From the IMG/VR virus record IMGVR_UViG_3300001518_000034: 64,000 nucleotides of DNA, one strand, 5' to 3'. Positions 1 through 32,528 of the stretch are shown here, piece by piece. The stretch is from an uncultured virus (IMG/VR IMGVR_UViG_3300001518_000034). Lineage: Duplodnaviria > Heunggongvirae > Uroviricota > Caudoviricetes. Position 1 is the first letter of the stretch. Every line of letters begins with the position of its first letter. Made by a program: the position numbers and the translations under genes. The notes beneath the pieces were generated by a model, which had not been told where the DNA came from, did no database searches, and saw only the letters and a list, made by a program, of their open reading frames with translations.

Positions 1-867
1 AACACTATCTTCATGCGAGACGCAAAGAATGTAATTATGCCGTATGAGTCTTTTGTTGAGCCTGAGTTCAACTATCTTCGTGGTCTACAATGGCGAGGAG
101 AGGAAAAGATCGACGGTACAAATCTTAGAATTGAGGTTACAAAAAGACCAATTTATAATAAAATTGAAGAGCCTCGTGAATCAAATGATTATTCAGATTT
201 TGGTAATACAATTGTTGGTGTAGCATTTGCTGTTCGTATTGCGGGTAAGACAGATAATGCACAGATTCCACCAAAATTGGATAAGTTCATGAAAGAAAAT
301 TATCCAAATGATAAAGTATTAGCAGCACTTGGTCTTAAGGATTATATTCCTGTAGAAGAGTGGGCAAAACATAAGTGGGTTGCAGAAGATGGAGTAACAC
401 CAAACTATGATTCAATTCCTAACATTTACACTATTTATGGTGAAGGTTATGGAGCAGGAATTCAGAAGGCAGGTGGAAACTATATTAAAAATGGTGTTGG
501 ATTCATTGTGTTTGATGTCAAGGTAAACGATATATATCTTTTGACTAGTGCACGTGATGAGATTACAACTAAGCTTGGTGCACCTATTGTTCCATTCATC
601 GGTAACTTCACTCTTGATGAGGCTATTGATTTTGTTCGTAAGGGATTTAAGTCAACTATTGCAGAGAATAAAGATTACATTGCAGAAGGTCTTGTACTTC
701 GTCCAGCTTATGGTCTTAAGAACCGTATGGGAAAGAGACTTATTGTAAAGGTTAAGTATGAAGACTTCCAGAAGTATCGTCAGGTTTATGGTACTGATGA
801 AAAGGTTGATCAACCGGTAAATGAGAATTATAAGGGTAATAAACTTAATTATGCATTTACTTGGTAA
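1..867 (+). CDS. ATP-dependent RNA ligase, Rnl2-like nucleotidyltransferase (probably 5'-truncated by the window edge)
   Basis: Motif I EEKIDGTN, motif III YGEGYG, IIIa FDVK, IV EGLVLRP, V KVK. The frame is open upstream of the ATG at 13 (NTIFMRD...). Confidence 0.85.
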   Translation, partial: NTIFMRDAKNVIMPYESFVEPEFNYLRGLQWRGEEKIDGTNLRIEVTKRPIYNKIEEPRESNDYSDFGNTIVGVAFAVRIAGKTDNAQIPPKLDKFMKENYPNDKVLAALGLKDYIPVEEWAKHKWVAEDGVTPNYDSIPNIYTIYGEGYGAGIQKAGGNYIKNGVGFIVFDVKVNDIYLLTSARDEITTKLGAPIVPFIGNFTLDEAIDFVRKGFKSTIAENKDYIAEGLVLRPAYGLKNRMGKRLIVKVKYEDFQKYRQVYGTDEKVDQPVNENYKGNKLNYAFTW

Positions 868-892
868 TATTTTCACATAATATAGAACTTTT

Positions 893-928
893 AAATCCAC
901 TTACTTTCACGTGAAAGTAAGTGGATTT
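893..928 (+). terminator. Intrinsic terminator after the RNA ligase gene (perfect 36-bp palindrome plus T-tract)
   Basis: aaatccacttactttcac|gtgaaagtaagtggattt followed by ttt. Confidence 0.8.
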
Positions 929-941
929 TTTCATATATTAT

Positions 942-969
942 TTGAATTTTTTAAAAATATTTCTATATT
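942..969 (+). promoter_or_regulatory. Phage promoter TTGAA-N16-CTATATT upstream of ncRNA copy 1
   Basis: ttgaa at 942-946, ctatatt at 963-969; the same motif and spacing recur at 8 other intergenic sites. Confidence 0.75.
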
Positions 970-977
970 ATATATAT

Positions 978-1080
978 AAATAAAGTCAGCCAGGGAGACT
1001 ATAAAATTATACACTGATGAGACCTGGACGAAAACATTTCTTCCAAATCCATTTGCTTGTGAAAGTAAGTGGATTTTTTT
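978..1080 (+). ncRNA. Structured small RNA copy 1 with hammerhead-ribozyme core, pseudoknot and terminator hairpin
   Basis: AGTC(984-987)/GACT(997-1000) hairpin. Loop CCAGG (990-994) is complementary to CCTGG (1023-1027). CTGATGA-G-ACCTGGA-C-GAAA at 1014-1033. Terminator aaatccatttgctt-gtga-aagtaagtggattt plus T-tract. No ORF. Confidence 0.7.
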
Positions 1081-1090
1081 ATATATTTTT

Positions 1091-1126
1091 TTGAATTTTT
1101 TAAAAATATTTCTATATTATATATGT
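1091..1126 (+). promoter_or_regulatory. Phage promoter TTGAA-N16-CTATATT-N4-ATGT upstream of ncRNA copy 2
   Basis: ttgaa at 1091-1095, ctatatt at 1112-1118, atgt at 1123-1126. Confidence 0.75.
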
Positions 1127-1151
1127 AAAACAAATAAATAAAAATTACGCA

Positions 1152-1255
1152 AAATAAAGTCAGCCAGGGAGACTATAAAATCATCCACTGATGAGACCTG
1201 GACGAAAACATTTCCTCCAAATCCATTTGCTTGTGAAAGTAGATGGATTTTTTTT
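1152..1255 (+). ncRNA. Structured small RNA copy 2 with hammerhead-ribozyme core, pseudoknot and terminator hairpin
   Basis: Near-identical to 978-1080 at a 174-bp offset, with 5 substitutions, none in the core. The two terminator-stem changes keep base pairing. Confidence 0.7.
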
Positions 1256-1265
1256 AATATATTAT

Positions 1266-1301
1266 TTGAATTTTTATTAAGATTAACTATTTTATTTATG
1301 T
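1266..1301 (+). promoter_or_regulatory. Phage promoter TTGAA-N16-CTATTTT-N4-ATGT
   Basis: Motif match upstream of the ORF at 1321. Confidence 0.7.
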
Positions 1302-1320
1302 AAGTTAAATTTATATTATA

Positions 1321-1554
1321 ATGATATTTAAAAATTCAAAAGAAGCACTTAATTGGATGATACAAAATCCTCTTAAGAAATTATATGTTGATGAATATGG
1401 AAACTATGTATTGTGGGGTCCTTATTCAAATGCTATAGAATATTGGCATTATATAGGTGGTGAAGATGAAGGTTATGATCCTTGGGATATGGATCATATG
1501 TCTATAGATGAATTTATTGAGCAATATGATAATGTTAAATTAAGTACAGAATAG
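1321..1554 (+). CDS. Hypothetical protein
   Basis: 77-aa ORF after the promoter; ends TAG TAA. Confidence 0.7.
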   Translation: MIFKNSKEALNWMIQNPLKKLYVDEYGNYVLWGPYSNAIEYWHYIGGEDEGYDPWDMDHMSIDEFIEQYDNVKLSTE

Positions 1555-1559
1555 TAATT

Positions 1560-1871
1560 ATGAAATATTTTGATTATATAGGTAATGAAATTAAAGTTGG
1601 TGATGAAGTATTGGTTTTAGTACCAAAATCAGATGCATCTTATCGAAGAGCGGTTATAGTTGGATTTAGAAATGCTTGGGAAAGAGATAATTATTTTCAT
1701 TGCGAAGTATTAGTTGAATATTGGTGTGAAAGATTATATTGTACTGTACCTCATTGGAAACTTAAAAGTGGAGAACCTGTAGATTTTACTAAGAAAATAA
1801 CAAAAGCTTGGAGAAGTAATTCAGATATAATATTGTATAAAGAAAATATAATGAATAAATATGACAGATAA
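1560..1871 (+). CDS. Hypothetical protein (SH3/KOW-like N-terminus)
   Basis: DYIGNEIKVGDEV start is typical of small phage beta-barrel proteins; tight operon packing. Confidence 0.65.
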   Translation: MKYFDYIGNEIKVGDEVLVLVPKSDASYRRAVIVGFRNAWERDNYFHCEVLVEYWCERLYCTVPHWKLKSGEPVDFTKKITKAWRSNSDIILYKENIMNKYDR

Positions 1872-2490
1872 TATAAATATAATGAGACAATATATGCTTG
1901 ATTTAGGTATACCGGTTAAGCAAATATATAGAAAAGATTTGTATTTCGATGTATCATTAGTACGTAGAGGTAAAGATCATCCAGATCTTCCTGCAGCAAA
2001 TTATACATTTAAGATTTATTACATCGATTCAATTGAGCTATTTGATAGACATATAGAAGAGATTAAAACTTGTTGTGAACTTTTTGGATTGCGTGCATAT
2101 ATTAGTGTAAATGCTAAGTCAAAGATTGAATTATCTAAGAAAACACTTGTAAAATATGCTGAGATGGTTGCAACAGAAGAGTTTAAGAAGCCATGGAGAC
2201 TTTGTGATTCTGTAAATGGTGGTCTTGATGGTAAAGAGAAGAGATGGATTCTTGATGTAGACGATATGGATGCAAATGATGAAAGATTTAAAAAATATTG
2301 TGAAATTATAGAATCTTGTGAAAGTGGATATGATAAACGAATTGTTGTAAGTATTCCTACAAGATCTGGTATTCATATTATTACTCATCCATTTAATTCT
2401 GAGAAGTTTGAAAAAAAGTGTATTGAAAATGGTTTAGATGTTCCGGAAATAAAAAAGAATCATATTACTTTATTATATGAAAATTTATAA
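1861..2490 (+). CDS. Putative archaeo-eukaryotic primase (AEP/PrimPol)-like protein
   Basis: hhhDhD motif (WILDVDD) and TxSGxH motif (TRSGIHII). Confidence 0.5.
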   Translation: MTDNINIMRQYMLDLGIPVKQIYRKDLYFDVSLVRRGKDHPDLPAANYTFKIYYIDSIELFDRHIEEIKTCCELFGLRAYISVNAKSKIELSKKTLVKYAEMVATEEFKKPWRLCDSVNGGLDGKEKRWILDVDDMDANDERFKKYCEIIESCESGYDKRIVVSIPTRSGIHIITHPFNSEKFEKKCIENGLDVPEIKKNHITLLYENL

Positions 2491-2552
2491 TTAATAAAAA
2501 ATTGTTTTTATTATTATAAAATTCTATATTAAATTAATATATTTTAACTTTT

Positions 2553-2756
2553 ATGGATTATCTTAACAAATACCAAACTAATGATATTTGTAATTTCTGT
2601 GCAAAATTTAACAAAGGTTGTGATGGTAAAATGTGGAAACTAAACAAAGCTTCACAAAATAATTATTGTCCAGATTTTCAAGATAGAATATATGTAAATG
2701 AGCCTATTCAATATCATTTAAAGAAATTCTCAGAATATACTAGTAAGAACAATTAA
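2553..2756 (+). CDS. Hypothetical Cys-containing protein
   Basis: 67-aa ORF with CxxC...C...C. Confidence 0.55.
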   Translation: MDYLNKYQTNDICNFCAKFNKGCDGKMWKLNKASQNNYCPDFQDRIYVNEPIQYHLKKFSEYTSKNN

Positions 2757-2863
2757 TAGAATTATCATGGGAATGCATACGAGATATGTAGAATGACCTT
2801 TTGATAAGAAAATAATAAAATATATGTTTAAACAAAAATATATTCTCCTGTGATGATTTTTTA

Positions 2864-3229
2864 ATGAGTAAAAGTACTTTAAATATTTTTAATTTATCTA
2901 TTTATCAACAATTGACTCATGATTATTCATTAGCTTTAAATAATCTTATAAAGTATAATAATATTTATGAAAAAATGACTAATTATTATACAAAAGATGA
3001 AATAAAATATATTGTTGAAGTATGTATGAATCAAATGATTGATATAATTAATAGTAAGACATTTGATTTATTTGTGCCTAAGAAGGTAAAGAAAGAAATA
3101 GTAAAATATATTCCTGGTATTAAGGCAAACTTTTCTCAAGGATATTATAATAGAGTGATTAATATATTTGAAATGATTAAAGATATATTTATTGTAAAAG
3201 TTGAATATAATAATGAGATAAAAATATGA
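2864..3229 (+). CDS. Hypothetical protein
   Basis: 121-aa ORF in a + strand operon. Confidence 0.6.
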   Translation: MSKSTLNIFNLSIYQQLTHDYSLALNNLIKYNNIYEKMTNYYTKDEIKYIVEVCMNQMIDIINSKTFDLFVPKKVKKEIVKYIPGIKANFSQGYYNRVINIFEMIKDIFIVKVEYNNEIKI

Positions 3230-3241
3230 TTTAGAGATTAA

Positions 3242-3811
3242 ATGGTTTATTCTAAAAGTTATAATAATACTTTAGTTATTAATTTAATTGGTGGACCTTG
3301 TAGTGGTAAATCAACAGTCGCGGCAGAATTATTTGCCCGTCTTAAGAAAATGGGTGTACATTGTGAGTTAGTTTCCGAATATATTAAAGAACGTATATAT
3401 GAAGATAACAAAACAATAACAACAAACCAAATACCTATTTTTGGAATGGAACATTATTCATTAACAAACAAAATAGGTAAAGTTGATTGTATTATACATG
3501 ATGGATCGCTTATTAATAATACAAGTAGTTTATATAATCCAGAATATAATCCAGAATTTGATACTTTAATTATTTCTGAATACAAAAAGTTTAATAATTT
3601 GGATTTCTTCATCAAACGAGGGAATATTGAATTTGAAGATTATGGAAGAATACATAATTTTAAACAATCCAAAGAATTAGATAAACGTATTAAAGATACA
3701 TATGATTTATATAAATTAGAATATATCGAAGTTGAATCTAAAGATGCAGTAGACAAGATGATTCCAATTATATTAAAGAAATTAGAAAGTATTAAATCTG
3801 GAGAACAATAA
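3242..3811 (+). CDS. NadR/AAA_28-like P-loop nucleoside/nucleotide kinase
   Basis: Walker A GGPCSGKST after VINLI; ELVSEYIKE, IIHDGSL and GRIHN motifs. Confidence 0.75.
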   Translation: MVYSKSYNNTLVINLIGGPCSGKSTVAAELFARLKKMGVHCELVSEYIKERIYEDNKTITTNQIPIFGMEHYSLTNKIGKVDCIIHDGSLINNTSSLYNPEYNPEFDTLIISEYKKFNNLDFFIKRGNIEFEDYGRIHNFKQSKELDKRIKDTYDLYKLEYIEVESKDAVDKMIPIILKKLESIKSGEQ

Positions 3812-3828
3812 AAAGTTCTCCATTTTTA

Positions 3829-3864
3829 TTGAATTTATTTTTCAATTAACTATATTATTTATGT
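3829..3864 (+). promoter_or_regulatory. Phage promoter TTGAA-N16-CTATATT-N4-ATGT directly after the terminator hairpin tggagaac...gttctcca
   Basis: Exact motif match. Confidence 0.7.
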
Positions 3865-3883
3865 ATTTTTAAGATAGATAATT

Positions 3884-4084
3884 ATGATTTGTAAGAATTT
3901 AAAGACAGGCAAATATTTCAACTATAAATTCATTAATAATGGTGAATTGGTTGTAATTGATGATGGACAAGGTGTTGAACAGAAGATATCTTACAATGAT
4001 TGGTATAAAGATTATCTTACGATTAATAAATGGAAAAATCTCGATGAATGGGATAAAAAATATAATAATGAATTAGAAAAATGA
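3884..4084 (+). CDS. Hypothetical protein
   Basis: 66-aa ORF downstream of the promoter. Confidence 0.6.
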   Translation: MICKNLKTGKYFNYKFINNGELVVIDDGQGVEQKISYNDWYKDYLTINKWKNLDEWDKKYNNELEK

Positions 4085-4227
4085 AAAATTTAGCAGTACG
4101 TAATATGTATAATGGTAATATAATGTTAGTTCCTGATAATCAAGATCCAAATGCTTGGTTTAAATGGATAATAATAATGCTAATAGTTTTTCTTATAATA
4201 AAAATATTAATTTTAAAAATATAAAAA

Positions 4228-4701
4228 ATGATTGCAGATATTAGATTTAAAAAGTTTAACTCAGAAATTTTGAGTGATGTAACAGCATATATTAAAAATT
4301 ATCTTGATGAAAGACAAAATGAGGATATCGAGATAATTATTGGTACCGACTCACAAAATAAGGGTCATAAAACAGCTTATTCAACAGTAATAGCTCTTTA
4401 TACTCCAGGTCATGGTGCTCACTGTATATATAGGAAGTGGCATGAGAAAAAGGAAACTGTTCGTAATGTACGTTTACTTCATGAGGTAGAAATGAGTTTG
4501 GAGATTGCCGAAAACCTTAAAAATGCAGGTATTGAAAAAATTAACTATATTGATATTGATATTAACCCAAATCCAAAATTCAAGTCAAATGAAGTTTATC
4601 AAGCTGCTAAAGGTTGGGTAGAAAGCATGGGTTATGAAGTACGTTATAAGACTCTTTGTCCTCTTGTAACTAGTGCAGCTGACTGGATTGTTAAGTCTTA
4701 A
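4228..4701 (+). CDS. Ribonuclease H-like YkuK (DUF458) family protein
   Basis: IIIGTDSQ, RLLHEVEMSLEIA, IDIDIN and C-terminal AAD motifs. Confidence 0.8.
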   Translation: MIADIRFKKFNSEILSDVTAYIKNYLDERQNEDIEIIIGTDSQNKGHKTAYSTVIALYTPGHGAHCIYRKWHEKKETVRNVRLLHEVEMSLEIAENLKNAGIEKINYIDIDINPNPKFKSNEVYQAAKGWVESMGYEVRYKTLCPLVTSAADWIVKS

Positions 4702-4726
4702 TAAAATAAATACATAAATAATAGAT

Positions 4727-4753
4727 AAGAGAGGTCTTTGATCTCTCTTTTTT
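4727..4753 (+). terminator. Intrinsic terminator
   Basis: aagagaggtc-ttt-gatctctctt plus T-tract. Confidence 0.75.
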
Positions 4754-4766
4754 GTTTAATAATATA

Positions 4767-4802
4767 TTGAATTTTTTTAATTTATGTCTATCTTAATTAT
4801 GT
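4767..4802 (+). promoter_or_regulatory. Phage promoter TTGAA-N16-CTATCTT-N4-ATGT
   Basis: Motif match upstream of the 4820/ligase operon. Confidence 0.7.
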
Positions 4803-4819
4803 AATTAATATAAATAAAT

Positions 4820-5227
4820 ATGATCACTGTTAAAGAATTTAGGAATTTAATTAATTTAGGTCCTCAAGATTTCAAACGAGTATTTATGAAATGGGAGCAT
4901 GGTGACGAAGAAGATTTCATGAAGCGTAATCATTATCCAGCACCTAATTTAGTTAGTGTTAAGATTCAAGATATCTCTTCACGTTACAATGATATGGGAG
5001 GCAAGATTTACAAATTTGTCTTTGAAGATGATTTTGAGAATGATTTTGAAATGCTTCCAAAGGATATGATTAAATTTTTCTGTGAAGGAAAAGATGATTA
5101 TGATTTGCTAGACTTTGTATTATATGTAGAAAAGAATGGTAAATACGATCATATTCCTCTTCGATTTTCAGAAGGTGATACTGGTTATAGTGACAAAATC
5201 AAACATATCGATATTGAAGAAATTTAA
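4820..5227 (+). CDS. Hypothetical protein
   Basis: 135-aa ORF abutting the ligase gene. Confidence 0.7.
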   Translation: MITVKEFRNLINLGPQDFKRVFMKWEHGDEEDFMKRNHYPAPNLVSVKIQDISSRYNDMGGKIYKFVFEDDFENDFEMLPKDMIKFFCEGKDDYDLLDFVLYVEKNGKYDHIPLRFSEGDTGYSDKIKHIDIEEI

Positions 5228-5229
5228 AT

Positions 5230-7140
5230 ATGACAAAGAAAGAAAAATTAGAACTTTATTATAAGGCTAAAGAAGCTTATTATAATGGTCAGGAGATTAT
5301 GACTGACTTTGAGTTTGATACTCTTGAGAAAGAACTTGGTCTTGAGAACAAATCAGAAGTTGGTACTAAACATAATCCTTCTTATACAATTAAACATCCT
5401 TTTGTAATGGGTTCTATTTCTAAAGTCCAAATTCATAAGGATAAGGAAGGAAATATTGATTGGAATAAGTATTTTAATGAAGCAAAGAAATATTTTGGTA
5501 ATGCTGAACTAATTATTACACCAAAATATGATGGATGTTCATTTGAAGTAGATATTTATGATGACTCTATTGAATCTATTTCTTCACGTGGTGATGGTTC
5601 GTGGGGAAAAGATTTGTTAAAACATCTTATCAATTTTATACCACAAAACCTTTTAGGAATATCATCTCATTATATACTTCGTGGTGAAGTACTTATTAAG
5701 AAGGATATTTTTGAAAAGAAATATTCAGAACAATTTACAAATCCGCGTTCATTTGTGTCTGGTGTTCTTAATCGTGATTATGATAAAAATGATCCTGAAT
5801 TTTTATCAATGCTAAATGATTTGTCAATTGTTATTTATGATTTTAGAGTATTTAATGATGGTGAATGGGAAGATAGAGATTGGATTGAATTGGATTTTGA
5901 TGAAGATTGTAATCATTTAGGTATTAAGGAACTTCCACAATTTGCAATTAATGATGAATATATTAAAACTGCAGATGATTTTAAGAATATTTATAATCAA
6001 TTTGCAGAATATAGACATACATGCGAATATGCTCTTGATGGTATTGTTATTAAGCCAATTATGGAAGATCGTATTAATAACACCACTGAACGTCGTCCTA
6101 AGGATTGCGTAGCTATTAAGTTTATTCCAATGCTTGAGGAAACTGAAGTATTAAATATTACATGGAATCTTGGTAAGACTGGCGAATTTACTCCTATTAT
6201 TTGGGTTAAGCCTGTAGAGATGGATGGACGAATGGTTCAGAAGTGTTCAGGGCATAATCTTGGTTATCTTAGAGAAAAGGGAATTACAATTGGTGCAAAG
6301 ATTATTATGAGTTTGGCTGGTGATATTATTCCATTTATGTATAAAGTTACAGAAGCAAATGAAAATGGAAATATACCAATGCCTGAAAATTATGATTATT
6401 ACGAAGATGATATTCATTTGATGGCTATTCTTACAGAAAAAGATATGCTTCGTAATATGTTTATTAATTCATCAGTATCATTAAATATCCCCAATATTGG
6501 TAATGAAACTACAAAAAAGATTTTTGAATATCTTGATAAAACAAATTCAGATGAGATAACAGCAGATTTTTTTGGTGAAACAACTAAAACTCTTCCAGGA
6601 AATATTTTACTTTGTTCACCTGAAGAAATTTATTTTGGTGCTGGTGCTGGTAAATCTGGTGATAAAGCGAAGAAGTCATTTGAAGAAATTGTTAAGAATA
6701 TTTCATTAGTAGATATTATTAAATCATGTAATTTTAGATTTTGTGGTCCAAAAGTTGCAGAACAATGTGCAAACTATATGCTTAATGGTGATGCGGATTT
6801 CGAACATCTTGCATCTCAAGGTTATGAATGGGTAACAAAGGATTATTCAGATGAAAAAAATGATATTTATAATATTCTTTCATTTCTTGGTAAATCTGTA
6901 GATGATTTTAAAATCCAACATATTGAAGCTAAAAAAATTGCTTCTGATCAAATTCCTATTATTATGACAGGAGAACCAAATGATTATAAGTCAAAGGGAG
7001 AATTTTTGAAATGTCATCCAGAATATCGTAACACTGGTTCATGGAAAGAAGTACAAATTGTATTTACAAATTCATTAGAATCAAATACTGGAAAAATGAA
7101 GAAAGCAAGAGAAAAGGGAATTGAAATTAGACTATATTAA
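5230..7140 (+). CDS. ligA: NAD+-dependent DNA ligase
   Basis: Domain Ia AYYNG..MTDFEFD, motif I KYDG, SRGDG, RGEV, NPR, DGIVIK, AIKF, OB fold (GKTG..TP, AGDIIP) and a C-terminal BRCT-like region (MTG...TGKMKKAREKGIEI). Confidence 0.93.
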   Translation: MTKKEKLELYYKAKEAYYNGQEIMTDFEFDTLEKELGLENKSEVGTKHNPSYTIKHPFVMGSISKVQIHKDKEGNIDWNKYFNEAKKYFGNAELIITPKYDGCSFEVDIYDDSIESISSRGDGSWGKDLLKHLINFIPQNLLGISSHYILRGEVLIKKDIFEKKYSEQFTNPRSFVSGVLNRDYDKNDPEFLSMLNDLSIVIYDFRVFNDGEWEDRDWIELDFDEDCNHLGIKELPQFAINDEYIKTADDFKNIYNQFAEYRHTCEYALDGIVIKPIMEDRINNTTERRPKDCVAIKFIPMLEETEVLNITWNLGKTGEFTPIIWVKPVEMDGRMVQKCSGHNLGYLREKGITIGAKIIMSLAGDIIPFMYKVTEANENGNIPMPENYDYYEDDIHLMAILTEKDMLRNMFINSSVSLNIPNIGNETTKKIFEYLDKTNSDEITADFFGETTKTLPGNILLCSPEEIYFGAGAGKSGDKAKKSFEEIVKNISLVDIIKSCNFRFCGPKVAEQCANYMLNGDADFEHLASQGYEWVTKDYSDEKNDIYNILSFLGKSVDDFKIQHIEAKKIASDQIPIIMTGEPNDYKSKGEFLKCHPEYRNTGSWKEVQIVFTNSLESNTGKMKKAREKGIEIRLY

Positions 7141-32268: not shown

Positions 32269-32528
32269 TGGCTACTAAACTTAAAAAATCTGAATTAGTT
32301 CCAAAATCTAAATTAGGTATAGACAAAACATTTAAAATTTGTTGGAATTGTATGTTCTGGAATGAAAAAACTGGAAGATGTCCATGGATTCCTGATAAAT
32401 TTTCAAAACCTCCAACAGATTATTCTAATTTTCCATATAATCATGTTTGCCCAAATAAAAGATCATTTAGATATAGGTTAGATTATTTAAAAGAAGATTA
32501 TGATAAATTTGTATATAAAGAAGAATAA
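32268..32528 (+). CDS. Hypothetical Cys-containing protein
   Basis: Likely start at the TAATG overlap (MATKLKK); CWNC..C..C. Confidence 0.55.
   Translation: MATKLKKSELVPKSKLGIDKTFKICWNCMFWNEKTGRCPWIPDKFSKPPTDYSNFPYNHVCPNKRSFRYRLDYLKEDYDKFVYKEE

Follow-up and report, generated by a model that had tools for sequence, protein, structure and literature searches.

To our knowledge, small nucleolytic ribozymes that occur naturally act by cutting themselves. The hammerhead variants among the RAGATH RNAs are cited as proven ribozymes (PMC11061315), and the discovery of the pseudoknot (PK) hammerhead is attributed, in that paper and in PMC11300833, to the Breaker laboratory in 2015. Its crystal structure (PDB 8YDC), as presented in the latter, is that of a two-piece complex, with a ribozyme strand and a separate substrate strand from which the cleavage-site 2'-OH had to be removed to stop cleavage (PMC11300833). 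The RNA is catalogued in Rfam as RF03152, the RAGATH-1 hammerhead, and it is against this family that the locus described here is compared.

The window analysed is the whole 64,000-nt stretch (24% G+C) of an uncultured virus (IMG/VR record IMGVR_UViG_3300001518_000034). The non-coding stretch 868-1320, flanked by an RNA ligase gene (13-867) on one side and a small ORF (1321-1554) on the other, is where an earlier note, made from the letters alone, had placed two small RNAs bearing a complete hammerhead core, no cis substrate and no ORF. On the last point the note was right, as the stretch has just one frame of at least 40 aa, which begins with TTG, is 44 aa long and lies on the minus strand. 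The ligase is about 70% identical to those of Prevotella Lak megaphages, which make up 15 of the 19 matching records, and members of the RNA family considered below lie on contigs of up to 474 kb. The source of the window is a giant Lak-like gut phage and the family occurs in rumen and gut phage contigs. Sampled words of window positions 1-2400 also occur in contigs of seven RNA runs, the top four of which contain 41-71% of the words. The ligase gene opens a plus-strand run of genes with repair-like, nucleic-acid functions (13-7140). The features of the locus are as follows.

13..867, plus strand: RNA ligase gene, 284 aa (ORF; Pfam PF09414 RNA_ligase, E 4.6e-14)
893..936, plus strand: terminator hairpin T0 (hairpin 893-928) and U run, after the ligase gene
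941..971, plus strand: promoter-like motif P1, TTTGAATTTTTT-N-TTCTATATTAT, upstream of copy 1
978..1080, plus strand: small RNA copy 1 (RF03152, 49.3 bits)
984-987/997-1000, plus strand: copy 1 helix IV, AGUC/GACU
990-994 with 1023-1027, plus strand: copy 1 pseudoknot, CCAGG/CCUGG
1001-1007, plus strand: copy 1 linker, UAUAAAAU-type
1007-1013, plus strand: copy 1 arm I
1014-1020, plus strand: copy 1 core, CUGAUGA
1021/1029, plus strand: copy 1 helix II G-C pair
1030-1033, plus strand: copy 1 GAAA
1034-1044, plus strand: copy 1 tail (arm III)
1045-1076, plus strand: copy 1 terminator, then U run
1090..1120, plus strand: promoter-like motif P2, identical to P1, upstream of copy 2
1152..1255, plus strand: small RNA copy 2 (RF03152, 50.1 bits)
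1158-1161/1171-1174, plus strand: copy 2 helix IV, AGUC/GACU
1164-1168 with 1197-1201, plus strand: copy 2 pseudoknot, CCAGG/CCUGG
1181-1187, plus strand: copy 2 arm I
1188-1194, plus strand: copy 2 core
1195/1203, plus strand: copy 2 helix II G-C pair
1204-1207, plus strand: copy 2 GAAA
1208-1218, plus strand: copy 2 tail
1219-1250, plus strand: copy 2 terminator, then U run
1265..1295, plus strand: third, looser promoter-like motif, ahead of the ORF at 1321-1554
3242-3811, plus strand: AAA_28 kinase-like gene, in the repair-like gene run
4228-4701, plus strand: RNaseH_like gene, in the same run
5230-7140, plus strand: NAD-dependent DNA ligase gene, in the same run

The two copies, put at about 100 nt each in the earlier note, belong to a direct repeat of 133 nt (978-1110 and 1152-1284) with 89% identity and a spacing of 174 nt, and every letter quoted in that note is correct. 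The core segment CTGATGAGACCTGGACGAAA occupies 1014-1033 and 1188-1207 and occurs nowhere else in the 64 kb even with two mismatches allowed, the expectation from shuffles being 0. Both copies carry the exact hammerhead core closed by a helix II of one G-C pair, and in both the CCUGG of the helix II loop can pair with the CCAGG in the loop of the AGUC/GACU hairpin, as had been claimed. The segments on either side of the core are single-stranded, again in accord with the note, and differ between the copies as it had quoted: UUAUACA in copy 1 against UCAUCCA in copy 2 before the core, and ACAUUUCUUCC against ACAUUUCCUCC after it.

That each copy has its own promoter-like motif and terminator-like hairpin is likewise borne out. 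Three terminator-like hairpins with U runs stand on the plus strand (893-928, 1045-1076 and 1219-1250) compared with 0.1 +/- 0.3 in shuffles, and the 3' arm of T0 is common to both small-RNA terminators. The promoter-like motif takes the fuller form TTTGAATTTTTT-N10-TTCTATATTAT-ATATGTAA and is always found on the coding strand, at 941, 1090 and 1265 in the window and at eight sites (L165-L172) in the relative G001, a phage of 158 kb that is 56% complete. All eight lie on one strand and are followed by an ATG inside the 70 nt displayed, one of them having been checked as an ORF start. This recurrent motif is probably a promoter class of Lak-like phages.

An Rfam scan of the window at gathering thresholds returned zero matches. 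A permissive scan of 850-1350, by contrast with that threshold, placed RF03152 in both copies at 49.3 and 50.1 bits (E ~2e-7), below the gathering cut-off of 56.3 bits, a shortfall explained by the lack of helix III, of the UH cleavage site and of the helix I return strand. The 5' two-thirds of each copy (AAGUCAGCCAGGGAGACUAUAAAAU, arm, CUGAUGAGACCUGGACGAA) nearly equals the RF03152 consensus, with its one-pair helix II, its loop-loop pseudoknot to the 5' helix IV hairpin and its UAUAAAAU-type linker, and the catalytic core, C3-A9 (CUGAUGA) and G12-A14 with A15.1 (GAAA), is exact in both. To these features the full consensus, as seen on complete relatives, adds a hairpin forming helix III, then GUC and the strand that completes helix I. 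No helix III hairpin closed by A15.1-U16.1 stands directly 3' of GAAA in either copy, the alignment skipping 22 helix III positions of the model, and no UH site (GUC in the consensus) followed by a helix I return strand is present. The model's return strand is instead aligned to the terminator loop in copy 1 and to the terminator 3' arm in copy 2, spots that are non-homologous, and these placements are chance.

In a scan of 20 loci other than the window, ten cis-complete relatives scored 59.7-85.8 bits, and ten of 12 truncated or atypical elements scored 43-55.1 bits, the other two lying above the cut-off (L059 at 59.7 and the first L042 copy at 57.4). Rfam thresholds thus hide truncated forms such as these. 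The layout of core and pseudoknot is that of the catalogued and crystallised PK hammerhead, so the fold itself is not new. The overall interpretation offered in the earlier note is partly supported: it holds for the core, the pseudoknot, the missing substrate, the single-stranded arms and, going by motifs, the separate transcription units, but the note had overlooked RF03152. A match to an already characterised cis-cleaving family, which that note had listed as counting against it, is half realised, since the match exists but at sub-threshold scores. As read from its letters, each copy appears to be the ribozyme strand of a PK hammerhead and nothing more; with the helix III return strand, the UH site and the helix I return strand absent, such an RNA would be unable to cut itself.

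Some features of other loci in these scans may be set down here. Locus L009 has a partial RAGATH-14 match at 1-100 (72.5 bits, clipped at the locus end) about 270 nt upstream of its PK hammerhead. The cis-complete PK hammerheads of L103, L126, L116 and L102 have only 2-3 base pairs in helix III, with a loop of 8 nt, and in three of the four (L103, L126 and L102) the ribozyme lies some 40-60 nt upstream of a start codon. Terminator-like hairpins with covarying stems are found downstream of the core in L003, L017, L040, L055, L065 and L070, and at 2830-3140 and 3560-3610 of L001. Their 13-nt loops share YGAAGNAYAGUA (in the cr7_1 type, GUGAAGAUAGU) and recur beside PK hammerheads in crAss-like contigs, and no such motif was named in the Rfam scans, which covered the window and 20 loci other than these. 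By eye, an apparent tRNA 5' end follows just after the terminator-like hairpin of a substrate-less element in L003, and an apparent tRNA 3' end, with a T-arm motif, lies just before helix IV of a substrate-less element in L065. In the crAss-like phage cr7_1 (NC_055895 14105-15367; L001 2382-3644), 1.26 kb without an annotated gene contains one complete PK hammerhead together with several special-loop hairpins and, near 3500-3530, a tRNA-like T-arm sequence.

The missing substrate was sought in several ways. A search that demanded U16.1 and H17 together with helices III and I was run on 78 core matches from the window, cr7_1 and IMG/VR, and found the expected adjoining site in most of them and none for either window copy in the 380 nt downstream. 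With one mismatch allowed and 400 nt searched on either side, the sites seen in relatives of this type were few, dispersed and not syntenic. Across both strands of the whole 64-kb window, sites with at least 4+4 contiguous pairs numbered two for copy 1 and one for copy 2 (4+4). The best copy 1 match (8+5, opposite strand, 33380) is not above chance, a score of at least 13 having been reached in 10 of 30 shuffled-arm trials, and the sole plus-strand match is a 4+4 bp site at 32356, so that the scan shows no hammerhead split over one transcript. In an alignment of 38 distinct members, arm I and the tail covary with nothing. The claim that a cis substrate is lacking survives for the adjoining sequence, for the 64 kb and by covariation.

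Several candidates were considered and rejected along the way. Pairing of arm I as helix I to the terminator base (UGAAU) or to the terminator 3' arm (UGGAU) fits few members (L059, window copy 2), leaves changes in arm I uncompensated and would make position 17 or 16.1 wrong. A site in the upstream ligase mRNA, AAAGGUUA|AGUAUGA at 747-761, offers 5+6 pairs to copy 1 and is conserved coding sequence that does not track the arm variants. Mutual pairing of the arms to close the core, seen by eye in L002, L005, L040 and L070, is not of the window's type and not general. As a separate observation, the best substrate of the PK hammerheads L021 and L031 (IMG/VR; core at 401-420) is a UA site 279 and 210 nt downstream, respectively, and in L021 a weaker local site stands beside the core and the best one past a terminator-like hairpin. 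This looks like a natural discontinuous arrangement that would cut only read-through RNA.

The substrate-less form recurs in relatives. Three scans of sequence collections, on the core (74 IMG/VR loci), on the terminator arm (22 loci) and on helix IV with the linker (65 metagenome loci, 61 distinct), yielded 38 distinct sequences with the window's layout, namely the 5' domain, a tail of 7-13 nt and a terminator with the GUGA loop seen there. Both window copies recur without a single change in metagenome locus L110. For 13 members, pairwise identity averages 0.95 in helix IV, 0.98 in the core and 0.93 in the terminator, compared with 0.74 in arm I, 0.72 in the tail and 0.63 and 0.68 in the flanks. 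As these 13 were picked by a regular expression that fixes the core and helix IV, the terminator-based set and the set based on helix IV and linker serve as the unbiased check. Of 23 terminator instances ascertained without regard to the core, 15 have the element upstream and all 15 have an intact core, one of them with C11.1U that retains a G-U pair (L082). Position 7 is the one core position of the hammerhead that tolerates any base. Among the loci collected by helix IV and linker alone it is U, A, C or G, the other catalytic positions being fixed save for a single G8U (L151). The constancy of core and pseudoknot beside variable arms, proposed as a test in the earlier note, is borne out, with no departure in the core beyond position 7 other than these two single-sequence changes.

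Within the 38-sequence alignment, only terminator pairs covary (C-G in 33 and G-C in 5; C-G in 24 and U-A in 11). Other substrate-less lineages, with different terminators, bring pseudoknots of CCGGG:CCCGG, CUAGG:CCUAG and CCAAG:CUUGG and a helix IV of AGAC:GUCU. In 23 substrate-less elements, chosen for diversity from 67 without a strict cis site, the cells of helix IV, pseudoknot and helix II are paired in 230 of 230 cases with four pairs compensatory, a result that none of 500 shuffles equalled and that collapses in slid controls. The 67 are an upper bound, in that the strict rule, which called for 3 bp or more in helix III and 4 bp or more in helix I inside 150 nt and had 4.7% false positives on shuffles, also lost complete ribozymes with a 3-bp helix I (L004, L044, L006), forms with a 2-3 bp helix III (L103, L126, L116) and the distant-site L021. 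Substrate-less hammerheads, as judged from these comparisons, are a conserved family in Lak-like rumen and gut phages, and an exact 24-mer of the family element has no match in bacterial and archaeal species genomes.

With respect to gene setting, 46 of 112 element instances have the ligase C-terminus upstream of them on their own strand, no more than 21 nt away in 41 of those 46, the RNA element of relatives usually beginning 9-21 nt past the ligase end (stop codon or end of the C-terminal alignment). From these 41 of 112 instances the usual form is taken to be a ligase 3' UTR. A promoter-like motif, rather than the ligase end, precedes the element in the window and in a small number of other loci (L100, L125, L152). 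The short forms appear to derive from longer ones by loss of the 3' half, and look as if deletion had produced them from long forms occupying that locus: L145 retains only UAUCCCC of the L135 type, and in L150 GAAA is joined directly to UAUUCCUCC, the segment found ahead of the L104 terminator. Other long forms of the ligase locus stand in tandem arrays in L042, L111, L128, L136, L138 and L162, and are also seen in L135, L106 and L113. These have helix III and a UU site, then about five extra bases and GUACAG, which pairs with arm I and C3 and so places G at position 17. They often directly precede a short substrate-less copy, the CUUGA tail of which complements the UCAAG before that GUA.

The search for targets in trans gave little. 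The 15-mer NUH targets that the earlier note had predicted from the arms are not enriched in the window, the two counts being 82 (74.3 +/- 8.4 by chance) and 36 (27.1 +/- 6.0), and no site in a hammerhead-type scan of the window was better than those of shuffled arms. In G001 the target patterns were counted at 8 versus 7 in the control for one pattern and 5 versus 0 for the other, the best site having a helix I of only 3 bp, and the top score of 12 in the hammerhead-type scan was attained by 16 of 30 shuffled-arm controls. On the phage side, that is, in the window and G001, nothing stands above controls. The host search suggested in the note fared no better: the exact 17-mer of the copy 2 target occurs in at least 120 places in bacterial and archaeal species genomes, scattered over unrelated phyla, and no Prevotella title is among the 80 matches listed.

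What these RNAs might do has to be judged from their architecture and conservation. Each copy would be a small RNA of about 100 nt with its own promoter-like motif and intrinsic terminator. It would open with the helix IV hairpin and the UAUAAAAU linker, followed by an arm I of 7 nt, the complete catalytic core and the 1-bp helix II. The helix II loop would engage the helix IV loop in a 5-bp pseudoknot, and GAAA, a CU-rich arm III of 11 nt and the terminator would make up the rest. The window phage would have duplicated an element whose norm in the family is the 3' UTR of the RNA ligase and supplied it with promoters of its own. A separate RNA would then pair with both free arms and contribute helices I and III and the UH site, the hammerhead would cut this RNA in trans, and the different arms of the two copies would address two different sites. 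That the free arms recruit a second RNA, which the hammerhead cuts, is the reading we favour, tentatively. Conservation specific to the hammerhead core suggests that the fold still forms, and as the fold needs a partner strand, pairing and cleavage in trans are the most economical account; the window RNAs are, moreover, collinear with the ribozyme strand of the crystallised two-piece complex. Against it stand the G8U of one family member (L151) and the recurrence of the CU-rich tail before the terminator of longer relatives, away from GAAA (L104 compared with L150), so that conservation of the tail need not reflect a role as helix III guide. A non-catalytic role, doubtful in itself, is nearly as likely as trans cleavage. 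The element would then be a small RNA or 3' UTR module whose pseudoknotted domain serves as a stable 5' body or a protein-binding platform, possibly linked to the ligase, and whose CU-rich tail (UUCCUCC or UUCUUCC) serves as an antisense seed or decoy. It follows close behind since no cleavage target was found in the window, G001 or the 17-mer genome scan, since a UAUUCCUCC-like tail motif stays beside the terminator in short forms and also in long ones, where it is distant from the core (L150 versus L104 and L139), and since the linkage to the ligase is tight. The UCAUC/GAUGA pairing that the earlier note had raised as an alternative is indeed present in the minimum-free-energy fold of copy 2, but in copy 2 only, and it is not conserved across the 38-sequence alignment. 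A scaffold alone, however, leaves unexplained why the catalytic nucleotides are fixed while only position 7 drifts through four bases, and the hammerhead core fold requires helices I and III, which the window RNA cannot form by itself. Sites complementary to the seed are also few in the window, at 1, 4 and 5 for three patterns (own antisense excluded) compared with 0.1, 0.8 and 2.5 in shuffles.

It is improbable that the RNAs act in cis after all, through a substrate strand that is non-canonical or far off on a transcript reading through the terminator. There is precedent in the site with a 10-bp helix III and 6-bp helix I at a distance in L021 and L031, beyond a terminator-like hairpin in the former, in the helix III of 2-3 bp in the cis forms L103, L126 and L116, and in L059, which reaches its 59.7 bits by way of an AUUCA/UGAAU helix I adjoining a UC site. 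The window copies, however, have no plus-strand site of at least 4+4 contiguous pairs within 31 kb downstream, and the UGAAU pairing of the L059 type is impossible in both and is lost elsewhere as arm I changes, positions 2.1 (A/U) and 2.3 (U/C/A) varying uncompensated. Least probable of all is that these are decaying relics, functionless remnants of self-cleaving hammerheads whose 3' half was deleted. The deletion-derived look of short forms at the same locus (L145 beside L135, L150 beside L104) and the G8U variant would fit such decay, but across the 38 distinct sequences the arms, tails and flanks diverged and helix IV, pseudoknot and core did not, the pseudoknot covaries among independent substrate-less lineages, and the copies were duplicated and acquired promoter-like motifs. 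Retention of the 5' domain with no cis substrate, clearly under purifying selection, argues against a relic.

Trans cleavage, the favoured reading, admits of a bolder form, in which the window RNAs and at least 38 relatives are natural trans-cleaving hammerheads whose variable arms guide the cutting of host or phage RNAs, possibly together with the neighbouring ligase and repair genes. We consider this unlikely as a whole; if true, these would be the first natural guide-programmed small nucleolytic ribozymes. A natural family that keeps the hammerhead core and pseudoknot and has discarded its own substrate would, if it cuts in trans, put a classic ribozyme to a biological use not seen before and offer a template from nature for programmable RNA cutters; otherwise it would represent a re-use of the hammerhead fold for something non-catalytic. 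The literature found holds no natural trans-cleaving hammerhead of any kind and no substrate-less natural PK hammerhead, the supplements to the 2015 discovery paper being a place where truncated examples may be described, and a jumbo-phage paper reports group I introns only. The fold is known, and the conserved substrate-less form is new relative to the literature found, those supplements possibly excepted.

Compared with the RF03152 PK hammerhead, the window RNAs have the same helix IV, UAUAAAAU linker, CUGAUGA, single G-C helix II, loop-loop pseudoknot and GAAA, and differ in having a short CU-rich tail and a terminator in place of helix III, the UH site and the helix I return. A discontinuous hammerhead in the 3' UTR of mammalian mRNAs was reportedly described by Martick et al. 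in 2008. As treated in a review (PMC6765202), that ribozyme likewise has its enzyme and substrate parts set apart, and relatives of the window RNAs also lie in a 3' UTR, but it has both halves on one transcript, whereas no second half was found in the 64-kb window. The canonical phage hammerheads found between genes (Perreault et al. 2011, PMC3088659) share the phage setting and a pseudoknot tertiary contact and, unlike the window RNAs, are complete self-cleavers thought to process polycistronic RNA. The connectivity of the pistol ribozyme's secondary structure equals that of the PK hammerhead (PMC11300833), from which it differs in core sequence and mechanism, and the Rfam scans of the window gave no pistol match. 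The engineered two-piece PK hammerhead is man-made and acts on a designed substrate, whereas the window RNAs are natural and end in a terminator; the two nevertheless follow the same order of hairpin, linker, arm I, core, pseudoknot loop, GAAA and arm III (PMC11300833).
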